The notes under the pieces were generated by a model. It saw only the letters and a list, made by a program, of their open reading frames with translations. It did no database searches and had not been told where the DNA came from. The translations under genes were made by a program, and so were the position numbers. DNA of 64,000 nt from Terriglobia bacterium (GTDB lineage Bacteria > Acidobacteriota > Terriglobia > Acidiferrales > UBA7541): assembly GCA_041485165.1 (NCBI GenBank), contig JBGPJC010000003.1:17-64016 (forward strand), given 5' to 3'. This document shows, piece by piece, positions 13,670-30,493 of the stretch (its first letter is position 1; every line of letters begins with the position of its first letter).

Positions 13670-14158
13670 CTATTTCTTTTTCTTTTGCAGGCGCTTGAGG
13701 AGCTGGATCTGCCCGGCGTGATAAATGTCGTGAAAGCTTACCCCGAGGATGGAATCGAAGGCCGCCCACTTCGAACCCGGCGGTGGAAGCATGAGCCGGT
13801 CCGCGGGGAACGCTTCTACGGCTGCGCGAAGGGCGCGGTGTTCCCCCTCCAGCAGCGCGACGGCGTCGCGCCACGCCTTTTCGCCGCTGTTGCCGGTCGC
13901 CGGAAACCAGTTACTGCCTTTCAGCGCAAACGACCTGCGCTTTTCTCCGCGCAGCAGCCTGCGCACCGCGTACTTCCAGTAGGTGGAGTGCAGCACCAGC
14001 TCCCAGATGTTGTGACGCCCGCGAGCAGGCCGCCAGGCGGCTTGACCGGCCGTGACCCGGCGAATGCTTCCGCGCAGATTGGTTCCGTGCCAGGTCTTGT
14101 GGTCGTAGCCTTGGTCCAGCGCCCGCAGGAGAGATTGGATCTCCGGATGATTCACCAT
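13670..14158 (-). CDS. DinB-family protein
   Basis: 162 aa with a DinB-like four-helix pattern and spaced His residues (WHGTNL..., HSTYWKY, HDIYHAGQI). Confidence 0.8.
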   Translation of the reverse strand: MVNHPEIQSLLRALDQGYDHKTWHGTNLRGSIRRVTAGQAAWRPARGRHNIWELVLHSTYWKYAVRRLLRGEKRRSFALKGSNWFPATGNSGEKAWRDAVALLEGEHRALRAAVEAFPADRLMLPPPGSKWAAFDSILGVSFHDIYHAGQIQLLKRLQKKKK

Positions 14159-14361
14159 TACGCACCCCGCTTTGCGGTCTTTATCTTTGCGCGAAAATCA
14201 TAGCAGTTCCCGGTCCGCCAGCCACCCCGGGCTGGTTCTTTTATCACCGAACACGCCTGTGCCGAGCGGAGGATTGTGCGGATGCAGATGCAACCCCCGC
14301 TTCACCTGGAAACTCTTATCCTGATAGACTGAAGCAGAGGGTGGAAGAAGGCGCGGGAAAA

Positions 14362-15330
14362 ATGCGAAGCGTTATTTTCAAGTGTTTTGACCAACTCAGA
14401 TCGCCGACCCTGCTAGCGGTGCTCATGCTGTTCTCGGGTACATTTCTTTCTCTCCCGCTTACTGCGCAGCAGGAAGGACCGATGTCCGTGCCTCCTCTTC
14501 CTCCCCCGCGGGCGGAAAAGCCGCGTAACCCGCCGGCGCCCACGCCTCCGCCGCCGCAGAAGGTTGCGACTACCCAGCAATCCTCCTCCGGCATCTCCAA
14601 CCAGCCTCCGGCGCTCCCTGTTGAGCAGATCATCCAGCGGTTTGCGGAGCGCGAAGCGGAGTTCAGGACGGAACGCGGTAACTATACCTACGAGCAAACT
14701 TTCGTTGTGCAGGAAATTGGAGACAGTGGCCGGCCGGAAGGCGAATACCGCATGACCAGCGACATCCTCTTCACCCCGGAGGGCAAGCGCTACGAAACGG
14801 TCACCCATGCGCCTGCCCCCACTCTCCACAAGATATTTCTGTCCGAGCAGGATCTCGACGATTTGAAGAATGTTCAGCCCTTCGTCCTCACCACCGAGGA
14901 GTTACCGAAGTACGACATCACCTATGTGGGTCGCGAACAAGTGGACGAAGTCAGCGCCTATGTATTCGATGTGGGGCCGAAAAAAATTGAGAAGAATCAG
15001 CGCTATTTCCAGGGGCGCATCTGGGTGGATGACAAAGACCTGGAGATCGTCAAGACCTATGGAAAAGCCGTGCCCGACATCCGCAAGGGCAACAACGAAA
15101 ATGTTTTTCCCCGCTTTGAGACCTTCCGCGAGAACATCGAAGGCCACTACTGGTTCCCAACCTACACCCGCTCCGACGATGTCCTGCACTTCCGCTTTGG
15201 CGATGTTCACATCCGCATGAGCGTTCATTACGCGGACTACAAGCGCTTCCAGTCGACCTACCGGATCCTGGGATCGAGCCCCATCAAGCCGGACAAGCCC
15301 GAGAAGCCGGACAAGCCCGACAAGCCGTAG
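14362..15330 (+). CDS. secreted hypothetical protein with Pro-rich linker and C-terminal PDKPEKPDKPDKP repeat
   Basis: A signal-like N-terminus (LLAVLMLFSGTFLSLPLTAQQ) is followed by a PPLPPPRAEKPRNPPAPTPPPP linker and a globular beta-rich domain. I cannot name a family with confidence. Confidence 0.6.
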   Translation: MRSVIFKCFDQLRSPTLLAVLMLFSGTFLSLPLTAQQEGPMSVPPLPPPRAEKPRNPPAPTPPPPQKVATTQQSSSGISNQPPALPVEQIIQRFAEREAEFRTERGNYTYEQTFVVQEIGDSGRPEGEYRMTSDILFTPEGKRYETVTHAPAPTLHKIFLSEQDLDDLKNVQPFVLTTEELPKYDITYVGREQVDEVSAYVFDVGPKKIEKNQRYFQGRIWVDDKDLEIVKTYGKAVPDIRKGNNENVFPRFETFRENIEGHYWFPTYTRSDDVLHFRFGDVHIRMSVHYADYKRFQSTYRILGSSPIKPDKPEKPDKPDKP

Positions 15331-23397: not shown

Positions 23398-23417
23398 TCT
23401 TTCGGGAACCCGTTCAG

Positions 23418-23473
23418 AGTTGAAAGTTGAAGGTTGAAGATTCAGAGTTTCCCCCCTCCCCCTCCCCCCCCCC
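23418..23473. repeat. low-complexity junction: three (A/G)GTTGAA heptamers followed by a C-rich tract ending in a C10 run
   Basis: Read directly: AGTTGAA AGTTGAA GGTTGAA GATTCAG..., then CCCCCCTCCCCCTCCCCCCCCCC. Confidence 0.6.
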
Positions 23474-23481
23474 TGTTTTTT

Positions 23482-23660
23482 GTAAGAGTGAGAAACAAAG
23501 GAGTTGCGAGGAGGAGGTGGGGAACGTTATCAAAACACGTGGTTTTAAGTGCTGTAGAATGCACACTTGCGAGGAGCTTGCGTAAGAGTGGCCAACAAAG
23601 GAGTTACGAGTACCCGTCCAGCAGGATGGCGGGTAAGAGTGGAATCGAAAGGACTTAAAG
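23482..23660 (+). repeat. three degenerate ~29-bp direct repeats (GTAAGAGTGnnnAnnnAAAGGAnTTnnnAG)
   Basis: The copies lie at 23482-23510, 23582-23610 and 23633-23660. Spacing is irregular (71 and 22 bp). Confidence 0.6.
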
Positions 23661-23976
23661 CTGGATCGCCCCCGTATCACTCTGATTGCTCTGACGCGTG
23701 GCACTGACAGTAACCCCAAGGTATCTTATCACAGAGAATACCTAAAAGCAAGGGAAAAGGGGAGGAGCCGGATCAGGGTAGAAAGTGAGGAGGGGAGAAG
23801 AGCCTCTCGGGCAGTCACCCAACCTACCAGCCGGCCCCAGCGGTTGCGACTTGGGGTGCGTATTGATACAGTTGGTGGGGCCAACCCGACTGAGTCCACC
23901 TCTTCTACTGCCATTTAGCAATTATTAGCCGAGCTTATTACCTTAGAAATGAAAATCGAACAAAAAGCGAATAACC

Positions 23977-24013
23977 TTGTCATTCTGCACCGCGATGGTG
24001 TAAGGTGGTGCAG
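23977..24013 (+). promoter_or_regulatory. candidate sigma70-type promoter with overlapping inverted-repeat operator for the island operon
   Basis: TTGTCA (23977-82), an 18-nt spacer, then TAAGGT (24001-06). The inverted repeat CTGCACC (23985-91) / GGTGCAG (24007-13) brackets the -10 element. All of this is 17-50 nt upstream of the RHH gene ATG. Confidence 0.3.
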
Positions 24014-24029
24014 TGGACGGAAGGTGTCT

Positions 24030-24230
24030 ATGGCGTCGAATATGAAGAGATTTGGGAAAAAGAGCTCTGCGGGATCACCGCGGGCGTCGGTGACTTTCCC
24101 GCCGGACCTCTATCAAGCCCTTGAAGCGCTCGCGAAGAAGAACAAGGTCTCCGTTGCTTGGGTCGTTCGCGAAGCCGCCGAGAGGTATGTCGCTGACCAA
24201 TGGCCGCTGTTCGGGAAAAAATCGGCATGA
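24030..24230 (+). CDS. ribbon-helix-helix (CopG/Arc-type) DNA-binding protein
   Basis: SVTFPPDLYQALEALAKKNKVSVAWVVREAAERYV follows the RHH beta-strand/helix/helix pattern. GGAAGG lies upstream of ATG 24030. The stop overlaps the methyltransferase ATG (ATGA at 24227-30). Confidence 0.7.
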   Translation: MASNMKRFGKKSSAGSPRASVTFPPDLYQALEALAKKNKVSVAWVVREAAERYVADQWPLFGKKSA

Positions 24231-25162
24231 GAGGAACTTCTCCAGTACTGGCTGCGAAGTCTGAAAGAGCTCATTCGATACGCCCGCAAGCGGATTCCAA
24301 CCGGTCCCCTAACCGAGAGCCTCTACCGTTTCCGCTCAAGGATGCTGTTGTCTCCTGTCAAGATAACATTAGCTTCATGAAGTCCCTCCCCCCCGAGAGC
24401 ATGAAGCTGATCGTGACCTCTCCACCGTACAATCTCGGGAAAGAATACGAAACCAAGCGCTCAATGGATGCTTATCTCGACGCCCAGCGCCACACCATTA
24501 CCGAGGCTGTCCGGCTTCTTCACAACGAAGGTTCGATCTGCTGGCAAATCGGAAACTACGTCGAAGACGGAGAGGTGTTCCCACTCGATATCCTTCTGTA
24601 TCCCTTGTTCAAGGAGGCGCGACTCCAGCTAAGGAATCGCATTATTTGGACCTTTGGCCATGGTTTACATTGCCAGAAGCGGTTTTCTGGACGGTACGAA
24701 ACGATTCTGTGGTTCACCAAGAGCGAGCAATATACTTTCCATCTCGATGAAGTGCGTGTGCCGTCGAAATATCCGAATAAGAAGCATTTCAAAGGTCCTA
24801 ACAAAGGCAAGCTCTCGGGAAATCCTCTGGGCAAAAACCCGTCCGATGTCTGGGAGATTCCGAACGTAAAAGCGAACCACGTGGAGAAGACAGAGCATCC
24901 CTGCCAGTTTCCCGTCGGACTTGTGGAGCGCCTTGTTTTGTCTTTGACGGACGAAGGCGACGCCGTTCTCGATCCATACCTTGGTGTTGGCTCAAGCGCG
25001 ATAGCCGCGCTTAAGAATGGGCGTAAAGCTTATGGATGCGATGATGTCCAAGAATACATAGAGGAGACCTGGGAGCGAATAGGCCAGCTACGTTCTGGCA
25101 AGCTGAGGGTGCGCCCGATGAACAAGCCTGTTTATGAACCGCCGCCGAGGGAATGTGAATGA
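24227..25162 (+). CDS. beta-class (motif IV before motif I) exocyclic-amino DNA methyltransferase, N4-C or N6-A
   Basis: LIVTSPPYNLGKEY is motif IV (SPPY). HPCQFPVGLVERLV and VLDPYLGVGSSAIAA (motif I, FxGxG) lie C-terminal to it. Alternative ATG at 24200. Confidence 0.9.
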   Translation: MRGTSPVLAAKSERAHSIRPQADSNRSPNREPLPFPLKDAVVSCQDNISFMKSLPPESMKLIVTSPPYNLGKEYETKRSMDAYLDAQRHTITEAVRLLHNEGSICWQIGNYVEDGEVFPLDILLYPLFKEARLQLRNRIIWTFGHGLHCQKRFSGRYETILWFTKSEQYTFHLDEVRVPSKYPNKKHFKGPNKGKLSGNPLGKNPSDVWEIPNVKANHVEKTEHPCQFPVGLVERLVLSLTDEGDAVLDPYLGVGSSAIAALKNGRKAYGCDDVQEYIEETWERIGQLRSGKLRVRPMNKPVYEPPPRECE

Positions 25163-25623
25163 ACTTTGTCGAAGGGTATTCTCATCGCCACGGTATGGTT
25201 GAGTGGGAAAAGCGGGAACTCGACGAGTGGATCACGGATGTATTCAATGCCCCGGCAATAGCCCTTGAGGCTCACGCAACCAATGCCATTCGAGATCACG
25301 TTCGCCGTGAGCTTACAAACGAGGGCTGGTCCGATGTAGTCGCAATTGCCCCGAACTTCACGAATGTGACGGTCTTCAGCCAGAAGGATGAACTTGCGAT
25401 ACAGCTGCAAACCGGCAATGTTAGCCGGGTGTTTTATGATCTGATAAAACTTCAGTATTTGTTCAGCCGTAACAAGATCGAAGCTGCTGCTCTTGCTGTG
25501 CCGACCAAGGTGGGCGCGCAACTGCTCGGCAGTAATATCGCGAACTTCGAACGTCTATGCGGGGAACTGCAGCTTTACGACCGGATCGTGACGGTGCCAA
25601 TCTTGGTCATTGCCTTCGAATGA
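25159..25623 (+). CDS. BglII/BamHI-fold restriction endonuclease homologue (short, divergent)
   Basis: LAIQLQTGNVSRVFYDLIKLQYLF...AAALAVPTK...VTVPILVIAFE lines up with the BglII segments LVEVQFSNYPFLLNN...VAIIITK...DVPIRLVGL as I recall them. The ATG overlaps the methyltransferase stop (ATGA at 25159-62). Confidence 0.55.
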   Translation: MNFVEGYSHRHGMVEWEKRELDEWITDVFNAPAIALEAHATNAIRDHVRRELTNEGWSDVVAIAPNFTNVTVFSQKDELAIQLQTGNVSRVFYDLIKLQYLFSRNKIEAAALAVPTKVGAQLLGSNIANFERLCGELQLYDRIVTVPILVIAFE

Positions 25624-25630
25624 GGTTGAG

Positions 25631-26965
25631 ATGGTTTATAAGGTTAAGGTTTCTCCCAAGCACGAACGCGAAGCCCAGATAGCACTCGGATGCAAGAGCC
25701 CGATTGAGATGTCAGCCTTCTACGAGTACCAGAACGCACCGCAACTGCTCCCTGTGATTAGAGTCGCGATAGAGCTTTTGATCTACCGCATAGCGAATGG
25801 ACGCACCCGAACGGCGCAGCTCCGGCATGTCCGATCGCATCAGTTGGCCGTCGATTTCTTCAGCGCCGGCCAAGAGAATCAGGAGAGCCAGCAGGCTCAG
25901 CACGACATTCTCGATCGTTTTTCAAAACAAGGAAACGCATCGATCACTCCGATCGCGACCGTTCTTGGCGAAGGCAAGCAGACGGAGCCCATTCTCGTCA
26001 CTGCTTCTGGTGTGGTCGTCAACGGCAACCGCCGATTGTCGGCAATGCGCGAGCTCTACGCCAGTGGCAAAGCAACTTACAACAGTTTCAGCCACGTCAA
26101 CTGCAGGGTGCTTCCCGCCGCGGTGACCGACAAAGAAATCAAAGAAATCGAAATCCGTCTGCAGATGCAGCCAGAAACTAAGCTTCCATACACATGGGTC
26201 AACGAAGCGCTGACGATTAAGGATCTTATGGCCAATGGTTTCACTAAGGATGAAGTGATGCGCGACATGCGCAAGGAGACCTCTCAAGAAATCGATGCCG
26301 CTTTGCAGGCGCTTGTCCATGCAGAGATTTACATGAAGGACTGGCTGAAGCAGCCTGAGGAATATGATCTTGTCGAGGGCGCGAAGCAACATTTTGGCGA
26401 CATGGCGAGGCTGCTGAAGAACAAGAGCGGAGAAGAACTTGAATTGAGCCGTCGCCTCGGTTTCCTCGTCCAGGACAGCTCGAAAGAAATGGGGGATCGG
26501 GCCTATGCGTTTAATTTCAGTTTCGGCAAGAAATCCGCTGAAGTGGCCGAGGCCCTAGCTGTTCGCCTCGGCGTGGATCTGACGGCCGCAGCCACCGAAA
26601 ACAATCAATCCCCGCAGCGACTCGACATCGACATCGAAGACGAAACCGAGGGCGCAAGTTACCAACCCCTAATTGAATTATTGGATGACGCCAGCCGCCG
26701 GGAAGAAGTGTCCGAAGAACTCATCTCGGTATGCGAGAGCATTCGCTCCGCCGAACAAGATGAAAAGCGGGGGCAGGCGGCACTGAAAGCGGCGAAGGAT
26801 GCAAATACGCGGCTGCTTGAGGCCGATATCGCAACGGCCGACCCAGCGACGTATCCTGGAATCGTCGCCCAGCTCGACAGCGTCATCACGCGTGCGACGA
26901 AGCTTAAGGACGAGGTTGCGAACGCAATCTCGAAGTCGAAATCCGCGGTAACTCCGAAGAACTAA
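25631..26965 (+). CDS. ParB/Srx-superfamily N-terminal domain protein with acidic coiled-coil C-terminal half
   Basis: VIRVAIELLIYRIANGRTRT (the L..y..N.R box) and EPILVTASGVVVNGNRRLSAMREL (the ParB-like G-x-x-R-x-x-A box) are present. The ATG at 25631 is preceded by GAGGTTGAG and is 7 nt after the upstream stop. Confidence 0.65.
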   Translation: MVYKVKVSPKHEREAQIALGCKSPIEMSAFYEYQNAPQLLPVIRVAIELLIYRIANGRTRTAQLRHVRSHQLAVDFFSAGQENQESQQAQHDILDRFSKQGNASITPIATVLGEGKQTEPILVTASGVVVNGNRRLSAMRELYASGKATYNSFSHVNCRVLPAAVTDKEIKEIEIRLQMQPETKLPYTWVNEALTIKDLMANGFTKDEVMRDMRKETSQEIDAALQALVHAEIYMKDWLKQPEEYDLVEGAKQHFGDMARLLKNKSGEELELSRRLGFLVQDSSKEMGDRAYAFNFSFGKKSAEVAEALAVRLGVDLTAAATENNQSPQRLDIDIEDETEGASYQPLIELLDDASRREEVSEELISVCESIRSAEQDEKRGQAALKAAKDANTRLLEADIATADPATYPGIVAQLDSVITRATKLKDEVANAISKSKSAVTPKN

Positions 26966-26982
26966 GTCTATTGGCTCATGAA

Positions 26983-28890
26983 ATGACCGCGCCGCCCGTC
27001 GAGATCGAAATTACCTACAACGCGACCACGCTCCGCGGCGCTTTCCGACTTCAATCCACTGGTGACAATTCGATATGGGAGCGCCTGACCCAACGAGTTC
27101 TCGCTCTTGACAGCGATTACGAATTTGGTAGTGGTGTCCTCGATGCTCCGTGGACGACGGTCCTTTCCATCATCCGCGAGTTTGCTCCCTTGCAGCGAAA
27201 GCAGGGGTTTCATTTTCGTCCCGTGGGCCCCGCAAAGGAAAAGATTGATCAGTTCGTCCGTGAATACAAAGCGGTTAAGGATTCACGCGGGACGCTAACA
27301 GCCACGCTCAGTGACAAAGAAGTTGAGCAGCGGCTAAAGGCTGTGGCTTTTACAAAACGCGACCTCAAGACATTTCAGAACCGAGATCTTACGCACCTTC
27401 TTTCACTGGCCAACGGAGCCAATTTCTCGGTTCCCGGCGCCGGGAAAACTACTGTCACTTTCGCTTTGCACCTGATCACTCAGCGCCCAGGCCAGCATCT
27501 TCTAGTTCTGGCACCGAAAAATGCTTTCATCGCATGGCAAGATGTTGTTCGTGACTGCATTGATTCGAATTCAGAAAACAGCAATGCTGAGCCATTCACC
27601 GTGCTTACTGGCGGGGCAGATACAATCGCTGCACTCCTGGAATCCGGTGCAACCCGCTTCCTTATTACTTACGACCAGCTAATACGGATTCCCACCATAA
27701 TAGCCGCGTACCTTTCGCGGCGTCCCGTTCACCTTGTCCTTGACGAATCACATCGCATGAAGGCAGGTATGGCATCGCAGAGAGGATCCCTGCTCCTCAA
27801 TCTGTCATCGCTTGCCGTCCGTCGCGACATTCTCAGCGGAACGCCAATGCCACAATCCCCCAGCGATCTGCAATCACAACTCGATTTCCTGTGGCCGGGA
27901 GCGGGTTTAGGCTTGAAGATTGCTCAAGGGGCGGCCCCAAGGCAGGTCTTGGGCAACCTTTATGTGAGGACAACCAAGAGCGAGTTGGGCTTGCTCAAGC
28001 CACACCGGCAATTCATCCATGTCGAGATGAACCCTGGACAGCAAGCGCTCTATGCGGTCGTGCGCAACGAAGCCCTGAAGCAGTTGAGTTCGCTGAAATA
28101 TGAAAGCCGCGTTGACGTGTACGGCGCGCGGAGGTCGGTGATGACGTTACTGCAGCTGTCAGTGAACCCCGTCCTGGCCCTGCGTTCCATGGCCGAAACG
28201 CAAGAACTTTCCCTCATAGGTTCCGGAATTGTAGACAAGGTGATTGAGGAAGGGCCTTCCCAAAAAATGCGAGCCGTCGCTTCGCTTGCTCGACAGCTTT
28301 CTCGCGATGGTCACAAGAGCGTCATCTGGACGATATTCACCGGGACCATCCTCGAAATGGAGAAGATGCTGGCCGATCTGAACCCGGTTACGCTGTATGG
28401 CGCAATACCCATTGGTGAAGAAGAAGGCGCAGATACGCGAGAGAACCGTATTCGACGGTTCCATGAGGATCCAGCCTGCGCTGTTATGATCGCAAATCCC
28501 TCCGCGGCCGGCGAGGGAATCAGCCTCCATGCAATCTGTCACAACGCCATTTATCTTGATCGCAGCTACAACACGACCCACTACCTGCAGTCGATTGATC
28601 GAATCCACCGCCTCGGACTTAAACCGGGCATCGAAACGTACATTCATATCTTTCAGACGGTAGCTCCGCAAGCAATCGGAAGTATTGACCGCTCTGTCAA
28701 TCACCGCTTAGCTATCAAACTCAGAAATCTGCAGCAGCTTCTTGACGATCCCGATCTTCATGAAATAGCCCTGGATGAGGAAAATGCCGCCGATCCGACG
28801 AACTACGGTATCGAGCTGGATGACCTCATTGATTTGATCGAGGAGCTTGAGGGGAGAGATCTCAACTTTGACGATAGCGAAGAGGAATAA
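26983..28890 (+). CDS. SNF2-family helicase/translocase
   Basis: Motif I is SVPGAGKTT, motif II is LVLDESHRMK and motif III is ILSGTPMPQS. The C-terminal helicase lobe carries AAGEGISLH and QSIDRIHRLG (motif VI). Alternative TTG start at 26971. Confidence 0.9.
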   Translation: MTAPPVEIEITYNATTLRGAFRLQSTGDNSIWERLTQRVLALDSDYEFGSGVLDAPWTTVLSIIREFAPLQRKQGFHFRPVGPAKEKIDQFVREYKAVKDSRGTLTATLSDKEVEQRLKAVAFTKRDLKTFQNRDLTHLLSLANGANFSVPGAGKTTVTFALHLITQRPGQHLLVLAPKNAFIAWQDVVRDCIDSNSENSNAEPFTVLTGGADTIAALLESGATRFLITYDQLIRIPTIIAAYLSRRPVHLVLDESHRMKAGMASQRGSLLLNLSSLAVRRDILSGTPMPQSPSDLQSQLDFLWPGAGLGLKIAQGAAPRQVLGNLYVRTTKSELGLLKPHRQFIHVEMNPGQQALYAVVRNEALKQLSSLKYESRVDVYGARRSVMTLLQLSVNPVLALRSMAETQELSLIGSGIVDKVIEEGPSQKMRAVASLARQLSRDGHKSVIWTIFTGTILEMEKMLADLNPVTLYGAIPIGEEEGADTRENRIRRFHEDPACAVMIANPSAAGEGISLHAICHNAIYLDRSYNTTHYLQSIDRIHRLGLKPGIETYIHIFQTVAPQAIGSIDRSVNHRLAIKLRNLQQLLDDPDLHEIALDEENAADPTNYGIELDDLIDLIEELEGRDLNFDDSEEE

Positions 28891-28892
28891 CG

Positions 28893-29765
28893 GTGACACT
28901 CCACCGACAAGAATCCCTCTTCACCATGAGCGCTCTGAACGGTCTACTCGCGATTCGGCGTTACGCCATTGCTCATCCTAACGTTTTGCTGCCGGAAGTC
29001 GTAACGGCACTGAAGCACGTATCCGCGGACGAGGCCTATCACAATTACGAGGCGGCTGCCACATTGCACAGTCTCGTAGCGCGGGCTGAAAGGCCTGAGA
29101 CCGATATTCCCTTGTTCTTCCGGGAAGCCATTACGACACTCGTTAGGGAGATCAAACCTTGGTGGGTGCGCCTTTCGACTTCGGGACGTGATCGCGTGAA
29201 GGCCGCCCTCAGCATAAACGAAGTTCAATGCTTCGATGCCGCTGGTCTCTTTGCGCAACCGCCGACAGCCGAGATTCTCACATGGTGGGACGCATTGGCC
29301 CATGGAGTCCGTGCGAACGACAATGCGAAGCTATTAGCGCAGGGCCGTGAAGCGGAGCGGCTCACTATGGACTACGAGACGAGAAGATTATCCGACTTGG
29401 GCATTAGCAATCGTCCGCAGTGGATCTCTTTCGACGACAACGCGGCTGGGTACGACGTGCTGTCGTACGAAAGGGGACCTGTTGAACCCGTTGCTAAACT
29501 GATTGAAGTCAAATCGACCGGCCGTCGGCCACGCGAGATTTTCCTGACCCGGAACGAATGGGAAACCGCGCTGGAACGGTTCCCTAACTACTGTTTTCAT
29601 ATCTGGACACTCCCGGAGATGCAGCTGACCGAACTCACCCCGTCTGACCTTAGCCGGCATGTGCCCGAAAATAACGGAAACGGGGTCTGGCAAGTCGTCC
29701 GCATAACCTTAGAGGACGGGGCGCATGGCCCAATCGCCGGATCGTGCGGCGAGGATGGCGACTGA
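28893..29765 (+). CDS. DUF3883 (NOV C-terminal, PD-(D/E)xK-like) domain protein
   Basis: AGYDVLSYERG...KLIEVKSTGRRPREIFLTRNEWETALERFPNYCFHIW matches the DUF3883 pattern GyD..S....iEVK......f.ls.nE...A....y.ly.v. GTG 28893 is 2 nt after the SNF2 stop. Alternative ATG at 28926. Confidence 0.7.
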   Translation: MTLHRQESLFTMSALNGLLAIRRYAIAHPNVLLPEVVTALKHVSADEAYHNYEAAATLHSLVARAERPETDIPLFFREAITTLVREIKPWWVRLSTSGRDRVKAALSINEVQCFDAAGLFAQPPTAEILTWWDALAHGVRANDNAKLLAQGREAERLTMDYETRRLSDLGISNRPQWISFDDNAAGYDVLSYERGPVEPVAKLIEVKSTGRRPREIFLTRNEWETALERFPNYCFHIWTLPEMQLTELTPSDLSRHVPENNGNGVWQVVRITLEDGAHGPIAGSCGEDGD

Positions 29766-29838
29766 CGAAGGCTAGGTTTCCCGGGTGCTTTTTAAGCAGT
29801 CTTGTGACGATGTCAGCGTCGAGCGAATAACTGCTCAT
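29766..29838 (-). pseudogene. 5' remnant (~24 codons) of a PIN-domain VapC-like toxin gene
   Basis: MSSYSLDADIVTRLLKKHPGN resembles the VapC N-terminus (M..yLLDTNvvs.ll...p). The PIN-like similarity stops where the DUF3883 gene ends at 29765. The ATG overlaps the upstream small gene stop (ATGA at 29835-38). Confidence 0.45.
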
Positions 29839-30053
29839 CCCGTTTCACCGGGGTTGAAAGTGGCCCGGTGTAGCTCCAGGTCGGCCTCGAAATCTTTCCA
29901 CCAAGTCTCACCGCGGTCGTCTGGAGTGGCGAGCCAGGAATCCAGCCACTGAAGCAGTTTTGTGTTTCGTGGTCGCAGGCGCCGCGCAGCTCCACTGGAA
30001 TCGGTCACGAGCGACTTTGATTTCCCTCGGCGCAAAATGGATTGCTTGGGCAT
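29835..30053 (-). CDS. small protein in antitoxin position (putative VapB-like partner)
   Basis: 72 aa, translationally coupled (ATGA) to the PIN remnant. The call rests on position only. I do not recognise a family. Confidence 0.35.
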   Translation of the reverse strand: MPKQSILRRGKSKSLVTDSSGAARRLRPRNTKLLQWLDSWLATPDDRGETWWKDFEADLELHRATFNPGETG

Positions 30054-30345
30054 GAGTTTGGGTTTCCGATCCTTTTCTGTTGCGTATCCGGCAAAACCCT
30101 GCTTGCTTATCCTAGCCTAAAGAGCCGCTGAGGGGAAACATCTGGAGGATGGGCGGAGAGATGAAAGCAGATCCCTCGTCCGCCGGAGCTGACTCGGGAT
30201 GACAGTTCTTGGCGTGGGGGGGAACGGGGAGGGAAAAAGATAACGCGGAGGCACAGAGAACGCAGAGTGACGCAGAGTCTGGAAGAGATGGCCAGGATTT
30301 GGAGGTTGGACGGAGGAGGATGGGAGCTGGAAGTTGCGGGTTTGA

Positions 30346-30483
30346 GGTAGGGGCACGGCGAAGCCGTGCCCATTCGACGGACGACAGGCGATGATCGACG
30401 GACCCTTCGACTCGCTCCGTTCGCTCAGGATTAACATCCTGGCCGGATGCTGACGGTGGGCACGGCTGTGCCGTGCCCCTACC
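30346..30483. repeat. REP-like element: two GGGCACGGC-N3-GCCGTGCCC hairpins arranged as a larger inverted repeat
   Basis: Hairpin 1 is at 30351-30371 and hairpin 2 at 30458-30478. The outer arms are GGTAGGGGCACGGC / GCCGTGCCCCTACC. Confidence 0.6.
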
Positions 30484-30493
30484 AAATCTAGGA

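Follow-up and report, generated by a model that had tools for sequence, protein, structure and literature searches.

Does a six-gene cluster in a low-GC island of a Terriglobia genome encode one composite system or two neighboring ones, and what would such a system do? The window analyzed here, a 64,000-nucleotide stretch of DNA from a Terriglobia bacterium, carried six closely packed open reading frames on the plus strand at positions 24030-29765. As the original prediction had described, the genes follow each other nearly without spacers, and all the listed junctions were present. The ribbon-helix-helix (RHH) and methyltransferase genes share an ATGA overlap at 24227-24230, and a second ATGA overlap at 25159-25162 links the methyltransferase gene to that of a BamHI-like protein. 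A 7-nt gap precedes the ATG codon of the ParB-like gene at 25631, the SNF2 gene starts after 5 nt at a TTG (26971) or alternatively after 17 nt at an ATG (26983), and 2 nt separate it from the GTG codon of the DUF3883 gene at 28893. Pfam searches agreed with the earlier domain calls, namely RHH, methylase, BglII-type fold, ParB-like (weakly), SNF2, and DUF3883.

The compositional break claimed for this region was evident from the GC profile of the window, which fell at about 23500 and returned at about 30500. The low-GC island, comprising the cassette and its non-coding flanks (approximately 23400-30490), averaged 0.542 in GC content, compared with 0.623 elsewhere in the window. The operon itself (0.541 against 0.623 in the remaining window) lay below the lowest value of 183 equal-sized windows outside the island (minimum 0.574, mean 0.623, SD 0.02). 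GC3 was 0.58-0.66 in the cassette genes and 0.79-0.83 in the genes on either side. Searches for a tRNA, an integrase, or direct repeats flanking the island found none. In this window, the cassette sits between housekeeping genes, and transfer genes are absent nearby.

Conservation of the cluster was investigated by a scan of 185,579 species-level genomes anchored on the ParB-like gene. Relatives occurred patchily, in 169 genomes, and the best 80 of the 169 were compared. They belonged to at least eight phyla, including Acidobacteriota, Alpha- and Gammaproteobacteria, Bacillota, Bacteroidota, Verrucomicrobiota, Nitrospinota, Nitrospirota, and Binatia. The methylase, BamHI-like, ParB-like, SNF2, and DUF3883 genes were all present and co-directional in 70 loci among the best 80, with median junctions of -1, 12, -6, and -1 nt, so that order and near-zero spacing were fixed across phyla. 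The methylase/BamHI-like pair and the ParB/SNF2/DUF3883 trio therefore co-occur in unrelated genomes (approximately 70 loci), supporting the view that the cluster is one composite unit and not two neighbors. The RHH gene did not share this conservation. Its homologues were found only upstream of the Acidobacteria-like cassettes (L004-L007, and 12 of 80 metagenome loci), while the other lineages carried other small regulators or none at that place; the conserved unit therefore consists of five genes, not the six proposed. Such variation of small upstream regulators is also seen with mobile restriction-modification (R-M) systems.

A metagenome sample supplied 80 loci anchored on the BamHI-like gene, and each neighbor was scored only where the locus had room for it. 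All 69 such loci had the methylase and all 63 the ParB-like gene; SNF2 was seen in 52/53 and DUF3883 in 44/47, where the misses were truncated copies. With this anchoring, no locus showed the BamHI-like gene and the methylase by themselves as a methylase/nuclease pair. No self-sufficient two-gene methylase and endonuclease unit was seen in these 80 loci, and the 80 genome loci gave the same pattern. Mantel correlation of pairwise distances in 53 loci was 0.85 within the ParB-SNF2-DUF3883 trio. The BamHI-like protein correlated with the trio at 0.73-0.76, but with the methylase at only 0.38. Decayed copies of the cassette were also found (L004, L007, L042, L092, and L093).

The first gene (24030-24230, plus strand) encodes a 66-aa RHH protein (Pfam RHH_1/RHH_5, E 1e-6), a lineage-specific candidate controller of the operon and possibly a local regulator of the five-gene system. 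Its start at 24030 is backed by a 66-aa homologue (L006), whereas the JGI call is 23949. The following gene (24227-25162, plus strand) encodes a beta-class N4/N6 DNA methyltransferase with motif IV TSPPYN (Pfam N6_N4_Mtase, E 1e-48; PADLOC MTase_II, E 8e-78), whose closest solved structure was M.RsrI (E 5.6e-34). TSPPYN and the SAM motif VlDPY.GvGS were kept across 66 homologues, and its product is probably N4-methylcytosine, as predicted from the sequence. The methylase is the most conserved protein of the set, with 70-75% identity across phyla, which indicates recent horizontal transfer. Start candidates were 24200, 24227, and 24377, the last being the JGI choice, and the N-terminal 40 residues or so are unconserved in the family. 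A palindrome-avoidance test for the target site gave no signal.

The 154-aa product of the third gene (25159-25623, plus strand) has the alpha/beta fold of BamHI-type restriction endonucleases according to its AF2 model (pLDDT 93, pTM 0.87). The top 16 Foldseek matches in the PDB were only BstYI, BamHI, OkrAI, and BglII (E 2.7e-11 to 1e-5, TMq 0.68-0.80). The profile matched BstYI at 1.6e-7 and Pfam Endonuc-BglII at E 1e-5, slightly below the Pfam cut-off. NCBI annotates the protein as a 'BglII/BstYI family type II restriction endonuclease', and the original prediction likewise called it a BglII-like nuclease. The active site does not agree with this label. In the profile alignment, E111 and E113 of BamHI correspond to Q82 and Q84, and D86 and E71 of OkrAI, which we take to be D94 and E77 in the BamHI numbering, correspond to T71 and V60. 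The carboxylates of the PD...(E/D)x(E/Q/K) site (BamHI D94 and E111, plus E77 and E113) were not found in the cassette protein. Among 237 unique sequences, position 82 (BamHI E111) was Q in 211, H in 25, and T in 1, and acidic in none, and position 71 (taken as BamHI D94) was mostly T188/S23/K15, with E in just 2. As these metal-binding carboxylates are missing, the protein is probably not a nuclease.

Other residues of the BamHI-like family are strictly kept in the 237 unique sequences: Q84, G86, N87, R90, Y93, D94, and K97 (own numbering) are invariant, as is the TGNxS DNA-reading loop that holds N116 and S118 in BamHI. The protein thus probably serves as a reader of unmarked sites, judging from the retained loop. 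D78, D94, and E136 vary little or not at all, E108 occurs in approximately 85% of sequences, and position 60 is acidic in about half; these conserved acidic residues may form a non-canonical active site. The missing catalytic residues, together with the lineage-limited RHH gene, contradict the proposal that the first three genes constitute a regulator-controlled type II R-M module.

The 444-aa protein encoded at 25631-26965 (plus strand) was weakly matched by Pfam ddrB-ParB (E 0.0045, residues 120-153). Its AF2 model (pLDDT 86.7, pTM 0.76) predicted an N-terminal ParB/Srx-type NTP-binding domain followed by a helical middle domain superposable on the HTH region of ParB; an acidic disordered linker then leads to a coiled coil at the C-terminus. 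The top 31 Foldseek matches were all ParB, Spo0J, Noc, KorB, or pNOB8 ParB (E 2e-3 to 0.2; probability 0.72-1.0 and at least 0.87 except for one), and the target TM-score against Spo0J (1vz0) was 0.55-0.60 over approximately 200 columns. The model and the sequence agreed on a ParB N-terminal fold with an arginine-rich nucleotide-binding box: the NGNRR box is invariant in 55 sequences, within the invariant residues Y52, R53, N56, R58, T59, N131, G132, N133, R134, R135, E174, L177, and Q178. Profile searches against solved structures and against canonical ParB found nothing, and the assignment to ParB rests on a fold match of modest E-value (2e-3) and this short motif. The family comprises 475 clusters at 50% identity (E<=1e-30). 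No ParA-like gene was found in the island or in the conserved cassette of related loci. The protein is a putative NTP-gated DNA clamp or nickase, its nucleotide being presumed, and its middle domain might itself read DNA.

The fifth gene (26971-28890, plus strand; Pfam SNF2-rel_dom, E 5e-10, and Helicase_C) encodes a 639-aa SNF2-family ATPase/translocase in which all the helicase motifs are intact (GANFSVPGAGKTTV, LDExHRMK, GTPMPQ, and QSIDRIHRLGL), with Walker A, DExH, and motif VI conserved among homologues. The closest solved structures were eukaryotic remodelers, and PADLOC gave just partial matches to ZorD, DpdE, and DrmD. The last gene (28893-29765, plus strand) encodes a 290-aa DUF3883 (NOV_C) protein (Pfam NOV_C, E 1e-12), a PD-(D/E)xK nuclease and the predicted effector, in which the motifs GYD...iEVKs...EW are kept in 74 homologues. 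It matched PDC-S36, PD-T4-1, and the TmtA C-terminus in PADLOC. DUF3883 is a proven nuclease domain: it is the catalytic one of YenY4I (PMC6765204). HmaA, a SNF2-DUF3883 protein annotated as a DUF3883 protein, bears a C-terminal PD-(D/E)XK nickase domain whose activity is required against phage T4 (PMC11232893; PMC12839542). From their intact motifs, the SNF2 ATPase and the DUF3883 protein are predicted to be competent effector parts.

The gene order had been supposed to fall outside named systems, and indeed no PADLOC or NCBIfam model named this set when run on the six proteins, and no paper naming it was found in the literature. The type IIP R-M systems of BamHI, OkrAI, BglII, and BstYI resemble the front of the cassette in the small beta-class SPPY methylase directly upstream of a BamHI-fold protein, in the translational overlap of both genes, and, in some cassette lineages, in a small upstream regulator. 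The recognition loop TGNxS of BamHI and OkrAI is also kept. In contrast, the type IIP enzymes are 194-223 aa in length and have the D94 and E111 carboxylates lost from the 154-aa protein, their regulator is a helix-turn-helix C protein and not an unconserved RHH protein, and the BamHI-like gene of the metagenome sample was never seen without the ParB-like, SNF2, and DUF3883 genes, bar truncated copies. Type III R-M (Mod and Res) shares the logic of a marking methylase and an SF2 ATPase with a PD-(D/E)xK nuclease acting on unmarked DNA; in the cassette, the ATPase and the nuclease come as individual proteins from different families (SNF2 and DUF3883), and site reading appears to be delegated to the BamHI-fold protein, with a ParB-like protein added.

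The Hma system, or type-1 BREX-related system, consists of the SNF2-DUF3883 fusion HmaA, the DUF1156 methylase HmaB, and the DUF499 ATPase HmaC. It shares with the cassette a SNF2 ATPase, a DUF3883 PD-(D/E)xK nuclease, and a DNA methylase, but the two fused parts are adjacent genes here, 2 nt apart with intact motifs, the methylase is of the small N6_N4 beta class, and ParB-like and BamHI-fold proteins stand in place of a DUF499/BrxC-like ATPase. The six proteins and the island ORFs contained neither DUF499 nor DUF1156, and no PADLOC Hma model, HmaA included, was among the matches to the six proteins. Class 1 DISARM (DrmD SNF2, DrmMI methylase, DrmA, DrmB, and DrmC) is likewise a multi-gene restriction-like operon with a methylase and a SNF2-family ATPase. 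DISARM targets unmethylated DNA. The similarity was limited to a partial C-terminal helicase match to DrmD (26.8 bits in NCBIfam, where the cut-off is 610; E 1e-6 in PADLOC) and one weak partial helicase match of the SNF2 protein to DrmA in PADLOC (E 1.2e-4, 18.2 bits), and neither the core component DrmB (DUF1998) nor DrmC was found in the cassette.

The Dpd 7-deazaguanine island combines the ParB-superfamily protein DpdB and the SNF2-like helicase DpdE in a modification-based defense, a pair with counterparts in the cassette. The DpdE match was 18.2 bits against a cut-off of 500 in NCBIfam and partial in PADLOC, neither the transglycosylase DpdA nor preQ0-pathway genes were found among the six proteins, and the modification enzyme of the cassette is a SAM-dependent methylase. 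For the ParB/Spo0J, Noc, and KorB clamps, the N-terminal and HTH regions superposed on residues 1 to about 300 of the ParB-like model, with NGNRR at the place of their arginine-rich box GERRxRA. The C-terminal helical region could dimerize, although its long coiled coil differs. Unlike these clamps, the protein resembles the family at a level below profile detection, has no ParA partner, and is encoded in a methylase-translocase-nuclease operon; its nucleotide binding and sliding are predictions.

The trio is modular. A distant ParB-SNF2-DUF3883 trio, 30-35% identical to the present one, is paired with a different 280-aa front gene and, in 4/5 loci, is followed by a C5 methylase; Mesorhizobium, Microbispora, and Nocardia also have Vsr, whereas Azospirillum has the methylase only. 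In Bacillota cassettes, another SPPY methylase is substituted. Three loci (L036, L040, and L041) have the methylase, ParB-like, SNF2, and DUF3883 genes and lack the BamHI-like gene, so a separate reader is not universally needed. The occurrence with a different front gene makes the trio a reusable effector on alternative methylation modules. This modularity points to methylation sensing, and the methylase close to the second-subtype trio in 4/5 loci suggests that the trio depends on a methylation mark.

Based on these results, we consider, with a probability of about 0.58, that the five genes from the methyltransferase to DUF3883 constitute one mobile restriction-like defense system with a nuclease-dead reader, the role in defense being one that we infer. 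The order of events, also inferred, would be as follows. The methyltransferase, probably specific for N4-cytosine, would mark the host copies of a short site. The BamHI-fold protein, with its reading loop kept and its acids lost, would bind unmethylated sites without cutting. The DNA would be passed to the ParB-like protein, acting as an NTP-gated clamp or nickase, and the SNF2 motor and the DUF3883 nuclease would finally move along the foreign DNA, nicking or cleaving it. In a more specific and considerably more tentative version, which would make the cassette a new class of bacterial immunity, the restriction enzyme without catalysis would be a methylation-sensitive loader of a ParB-type sliding clamp that recruits SNF2 and DUF3883, and the trio would be a general effector plugging into either of two front ends, the N4/N6 methylase plus the dead BamHI-fold protein or the 280-aa front protein plus a C5 methylase (usually with Vsr).

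It is unlikely that the cassette chiefly serves a mobile element, as an establishment, anti-restriction, exclusion, or addiction module protecting or stabilizing the DNA of conjugative elements, although several copies in such elements mean that it may do so. Copies lie between coupling-protein and relaxase genes in ICE-like regions (Brevundimonas vesicularis and a TARA scaffold), beside an ArdC-N/MPTase polyvalent-type gene, and on a conjugative 1.7-Mb replicon of Paracoccus denitrificans. On this reading, it would work like the methylase-SNF2 dyad and ParB domains in the polyvalent proteins of plasmids and phages; domains of all three kinds (methylase, SNF2, and ParB) recur in such proteins of invasive elements (PMC5512222). 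The cassette proteins are, however, small and separate, without MPTase or ArdC fusion, and many copies, including that in this window, lie among housekeeping genes with no transfer genes nearby. No copy occurred in 50,697 phage records, and hardly any in 72,556 plasmid records. Restriction is a better fit than protection for a dedicated PD-(D/E)xK nuclease combined with a methylase that marks self, and addiction and defense can coexist in R-M-like systems.

Slightly less probable still is a merely linked pair of systems, a type IIP R-M pair with an active nuclease and an RHH controller beside a separate ParB-SNF2-DUF3883 defense. The trio is indeed separable, as seen with the 280-aa front gene and in the four-gene form, and the 154-aa protein has both the fold of true type II enzymes and their NCBI label. 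The sampled loci argue against such a pair, since the bare methylase/nuclease pair was never found and the ParB-like gene followed wherever there was room, D94 and E111 counterparts were almost never and never acidic, respectively, the divergence of the BamHI-like protein tracked the trio (rho 0.73-0.76) and not the methylase, order and spacing were fixed across phyla, and a methylase also lies near the trio of the second subtype in 4/5 loci. A housekeeping or regulatory role in DNA transactions (methylation-directed repair, chromosome organization, or epigenetic control) in place of conflict is very improbable. ParB-fold proteins and SNF2 ATPases do have non-defense roles, and the repair endonuclease Vsr accompanies the second subtype, but Vsr is the usual companion of C5 methylases. 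The patchy spread, the methylase identity indicating recent transfer, the deviating composition of the island, and the decayed copies do not fit such a role, nor do the toxin-antitoxin and defense genes (TIR, HipA, AbiEii, HigBA, HEPN/MNT, and GmrSD) that adjoin other copies.

The cassette is a conserved and horizontally mobile unit of five genes. At present, the 154-aa protein is labeled a restriction endonuclease and the ParB-like protein is left hypothetical, and carriers are therefore miscounted as having ordinary type II R-M. Cultured carriers, among them Brevundimonas vesicularis NCTC11166, Paracoccus denitrificans DSM 413, Rhodobacter capsulatus SP18, Paenibacillus lautus NBRC 15380, and Bacillus infantis, make the restriction-like reading directly testable. 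If it is true, an unnamed and widely transferred defense system would join the group related to restriction-modification, and two principles would be new: the fold of a type II restriction enzyme reused to sense unmethylated sites without cutting, and a ParB-like NTP switch working within an immune effector. The loader version, if true, would put the principle of the ParB clamp to use in self/non-self discrimination for the first time.

The ORF scan found six ORFs on the plus strand at 24030-29765, as in the original prediction, encoding an RHH protein, a methylase, a 154-aa protein with the BamHI/BglII fold (BamHI-like), a ParB-like protein, an SNF2 protein and a DUF3883 protein. The junctions also agreed, with ATGA overlaps at 24227-24230 and 25159-25162, a 7-nt spacer ahead of the ATG at 25631, either 5 nt to TTG 26971 or 17 nt to ATG 26983 at the start of the SNF2 gene, and 2 nt ahead of the GTG at 28893. 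The predicted domains were backed by Pfam for the six proteins: RHH_1/RHH_5 (E 1e-6), N6_N4_Mtase (E 1e-48), Endonuc-BglII just under the cut-off (E 1e-5), a weak ddrB-ParB (E 0.0045), SNF2-rel_dom with Helicase_C (E 5e-10) and, for the DUF3883 protein, NOV_C (E 1e-12).

The operon region is compositionally foreign. The GC plot showed a real break, with a GC content of 0.541 in the operon versus 0.623 in the rest of the window, and the lowest value among 183 equal-sized windows elsewhere was 0.574. The GC3 values were 0.58-0.66 for the operon genes versus 0.79-0.83 for the flanking genes, and the low-GC stretch extended from about 23400 to about 30490. No tRNA was present in the window, no integrase was found in its ORF set, and direct repeats flanking the island were not detected. 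The promoter scan returned 0 promoter-like sites, terminator-like sites were no commoner than chance, and the Rfam scan of the island gave only sub-threshold, spurious matches. Soil-type metagenome contigs from JGI also carried this sequence, next to the same genes.

Several further features were observed in and around the island. A 25-nt direct repeat (GTAAGAGTG...AAAGGAGTT) occurs three times in non-coding sequence at 23482-23657, upstream of the operon and inside the low-GC island, with start-to-start spacings of 100 and 51 nt. The right edge of the island (30346-30483) contains a 27-nt inverted repeat with 93% complementarity and 84 nt between its arms; the sole Rfam match over this repeat was a eukaryotic family far under the threshold, and was rejected as spurious. 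Just 3' of the DUF3883 gene, two short overlapping ORFs of 62 and 72 aa are located on the minus strand at 29650-30053. By eye they gave the impression of a vapBC-like remnant (PIN toxin and antitoxin), which was discarded as Pfam gave no support.

Close relatives of the ParB-like protein numbered more than 400, almost all of them unnamed, and the order methylase, BamHI-like, ParB-like, SNF2 and DUF3883 (NOV_C) was the same in the three loci checked first, those of Brevundimonas vesicularis, Defluviimonas aquaemixtae and one ENA contig. When one genome per species was scanned, relatives were detected in 169 of 185,579 species, the best 80 of which were distributed over Acidobacteriota, Alpha- and Gammaproteobacteria, Bacillota, Bacteroidota, Verrucomicrobiota, Nitrospinota, Nitrospirota and Binatia. 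With the six window proteins as tblastn queries, practically all complete loci showed the five genes in this order, at identities to the window proteins of 70-75% for the methylase, approximately 55% for SNF2, approximately 50-55% for the BamHI-like protein, 33-46% for the ParB-like protein and 34-40% for the DUF3883 protein. The median junctions across 70 complete loci were -1, 12, -6 and -1 nt. A second sampling, from metagenomes, was anchored on the BamHI-like gene to avoid anchoring bias. Where the contig left room, the methylase gene lay upstream of the BamHI-like gene in 69/69 loci and the ParB-like gene downstream of it in 63/63, while SNF2 and DUF3883 were present in 52/53 and 44/47 metagenome loci, the missing cases being truncated copies. 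The outcome set beforehand as refuting the original prediction, namely that the putative R-M trio and the ParB/SNF2/DUF3883 trio never occur together elsewhere, was clearly answered by these counts in favour of co-occurrence.

The claim of one composite unit of six genes thus held for the five genes from methylase to DUF3883, but not for the RHH gene, which was found only with Acidobacteria-like cassettes; other lineages had a different RHH gene, an XRE-type HTH gene or nothing recognisable upstream. Different lineages appear to have filled the regulator slot independently of each other. The small gene that immediately precedes the methylase looked RHH-like by eye in two related loci (L010:8310-8663 and L011:8425-8631; coordinates of related loci are locus-internal), and the gene at this place had an XRE/HigA-type helix-turn-helix look in three others (L019:8263-8580, L021 and L022). 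Mantel tests on the pairwise-distance matrices of 53 loci with all five proteins in full length gave correlations of 0.85 within the ParB-like/SNF2/DUF3883 trio; the BamHI-like protein correlated with the individual trio members at 0.73-0.76, and the methylase with any of the other genes at 0.23-0.38. The observed value was reached in 0 of 300 permutations, except for the methylase/DUF3883 pair, for which it was reached in 2. These values show that the BamHI-like gene shares its descent with the trio and do not thereby prove physical interaction; the weak signal of the methylase may come partly from its low divergence.

The BamHI-like proteins form a tight clade of 153-154 aa. The AF2 model of the window protein (pLDDT 93) had BstYI, BamHI, OkrAI and BglII exclusively as its 16 best PDB matches (E 2.7e-11 to 1e-5, TMq 0.68-0.80). 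The profile alignment placed Q82 at the position of BamHI E111, BstYI E128 and OkrAI E99, Q84 at that of BamHI E113 and BstYI Q130, T71 at that of OkrAI D86, and V60 at that of OkrAI E71, where OkrAI D86 and E71 are presumed to correspond to BamHI D94 and E77, respectively. Among 237 unique family members, position 82 was Q in 211, H in 25 and T in 1, and acidic in none; position 71 was T, S, K, N or A, with E in only 2, and position 60 was variable. Q84, G86, N87, R90, Y93, D94 and K97 were invariant and S89 was kept in 232/237, the TGNxS segment being the counterpart of the BamHI loop with N116 and S118, residues that touch the recognition sequence in BamHI-DNA structures. Single substitutions at E77, D94, E111 or E113 of BamHI abolish cleavage and leave specific binding intact. 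The protein originally predicted as a BglII-like nuclease is therefore probably no nuclease, as the counterparts of the catalytic residues are missing almost throughout the family, and the most economical reading is that it is probably a site-specific DNA binder unable to cut. Alternatively, the conserved D78, D94, E108 or E136 of the family may provide a non-canonical active site.

The remaining four proteins of the conserved unit all look active. The methylase kept TSPPYN (motif IV) and the SAM-binding VlDPY.GvGS. Among solved structures, its closest relative is M.RsrI, an N6-adenine enzyme with DPPY at the motif IV position; as a rule of thumb, SPPY indicates N4-cytosine methylation, as in M.BamHI, and the methylase is thus predicted to be N4-cytosine specific. 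Walker A, DExH, motif III and motif VI were all kept in SNF2, and GYD...iEVKs...EW in the DUF3883 protein, which had no match among solved structures. DUF3883 is the PD-(D/E)XK catalytic domain of YenY4I (PMC6765204), and the C-terminal nickase domain of HmaA, annotated as a DUF3883-domain protein, is needed for anti-T4 defence (PMC11232893). The ParB-like family comprised 475 clusters (50% identity, E<=1e-30), nearly all of approximately 420-460 aa. The confident AF2 model (pLDDT 86.7) had ParB-family proteins as all of its top 31 structural matches, including Spo0J, Noc, Caulobacter and Myxococcus ParB, KorB and pNOB8 ParB. Spo0J was matched over about 200 columns (TM-score on the target 0.55-0.60), which take in the HTH region as well as the N-terminal nucleotide-binding domain. 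The place of the ParB arginine box was occupied by an NGNRR box, which was invariant, and the model continued with a disordered acidic linker and a C-terminal pair of long helices. The profile search against solved structures and a canonical ParB gave no meaningful match.

The design of the cassette is modular. A four-gene form (L036, L040:9003-14054 and L041) had a more divergent SPPY methylase (52-55% identity) followed directly by ParB-like, SNF2 and DUF3883, without the BamHI-like gene, which argues that some lineages can do without the reader; there the middle domain of the ParB-like protein could itself read DNA. The cassette of L040 is followed at 14087-15214 by a GmrSD_N (DUF262) gene in convergent orientation. 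The Bacillota form kept the BamHI-like gene and had a different, longer N6_N4 methylase (474-492 aa, TSPPYW), transcribed divergently from the minus strand (L014:7844-9322, L027:7788-9236 and L058:6646-8070). A second subtype, reached through weak matches among plasmid records (L166:6051-12007, L167:6048-11002, L168:599-5493, L175:9001-13958 and L176:9001-13974), occurred in Alphaproteobacteria, including on small plasmids, and Actinobacteria. It consisted of a cysteine-rich front protein of 280-320 aa with the motif IQKGCPDGAHSS, followed by ParB-like (30-35% identical to that of the window), SNF2 (34-35% over more than 500 residues, E ~1e-80) and DUF3883. The front protein had no match in Pfam, NCBIfam or PDB, and its clusters, more than 440 in number, were distributed over Alphaproteobacteria and Actinobacteria. 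A C5 DNA methylase was encoded just downstream in 4/5 of these loci, accompanied by Vsr in Mesorhizobium, Microbispora and Nocardia but not in Azospirillum. The variants suggest a general plan in which the ParB-like/SNF2/DUF3883 trio is combined with a small front protein and with a methylase that can be of any class.

The cassette is flanked by housekeeping genes in the window and in the related locus L174. Some copies lay in ICE-like cargo between coupling-protein and relaxase genes, and some adjoined TIR, HipA, AbiEii, HigBA, HEPN/MNT or GmrSD-type genes. Among 72,556 plasmid records, the full cassette was carried only by a Paracoccus replicon of 1.7 Mb; none of 50,697 phage records carried it, and E. 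coli genomes gave no match. The methylase, SNF2 or DUF3883 gene was split or truncated in the decayed copies L004 (8619-13739), L007, L042, L092 and L093, and an IS481 element sits between SNF2 and DUF3883 in L166, both consistent with gain-and-loss dynamics. Palindrome avoidance was examined as a possible pointer to the target site. When 46 non-independent cassettes were compared with their flanks, most palindromes were depleted, with an O/E of 0.91 for GGATCC and the lowest value, 0.26, for CTCGAG.

PADLOC assigned only generic MTase_II to the methylase and a weak REase_II to the BamHI-like protein, matched SNF2 to partial helicase lobes of ZorD, DpdE and DrmD and the DUF3883 protein to the DUF3883 ends of PDC-S36, PD-T4-1 and TmtA, and gave no match for the ParB-like protein. 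No NCBIfam model (June 2026) was above the cut-off for any of the six proteins. With no name for the set in PADLOC 2023 or NCBIfam 2026, the view that the gene order belongs to no recognised system was upheld; the searchable full-text literature contained no description of the gene set, and work outside that coverage could exist. The first three genes had been read as a type II R-M module, which did not stand: enzymes of the type II BamHI/BglII group are autonomous and have catalytic residues, whereas the cassette fails in both respects and is not a member. It also lacks both the DUF499 ATPase and the DUF1156 methylase of Hma and BREX-related systems, the DrmA and DrmB of DISARM and the DpdA of Dpd, and is therefore none of these. 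The cassette is classified as a putative member of the multi-gene R-M-related defence systems. Polyvalent proteins encoded by invasive elements also repeatedly contain methylase, SNF2 and ParB domains (PMC5512222), and a role in serving a mobile element therefore stays as a rival to defence.

For the defence role, the cassette would work most like type III or Hma-style restriction, with the addition of a ParB-like component and an outsourced reader. From the observed parts list and motif integrity, we infer an order of events in which the methylase would mark host sites, the catalytically dead BamHI-fold protein would bind unmarked sites, the ParB-like NTP switch would be loaded or activated there, and SNF2 and DUF3883 would then translocate and nick or cleave. 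This order follows the analogy with type III R-M and Hma, in which an SF2 motor and a PD-(D/E)xK nuclease act on unmarked DNA, with the loading of ParB at parS, and with the inactive restriction-enzyme folds often reused as sensors by BREX-related systems (PMC12839542). The proposed mechanism, with a ParB-type clamp in immune surveillance, has a fair chance of being new in principle.
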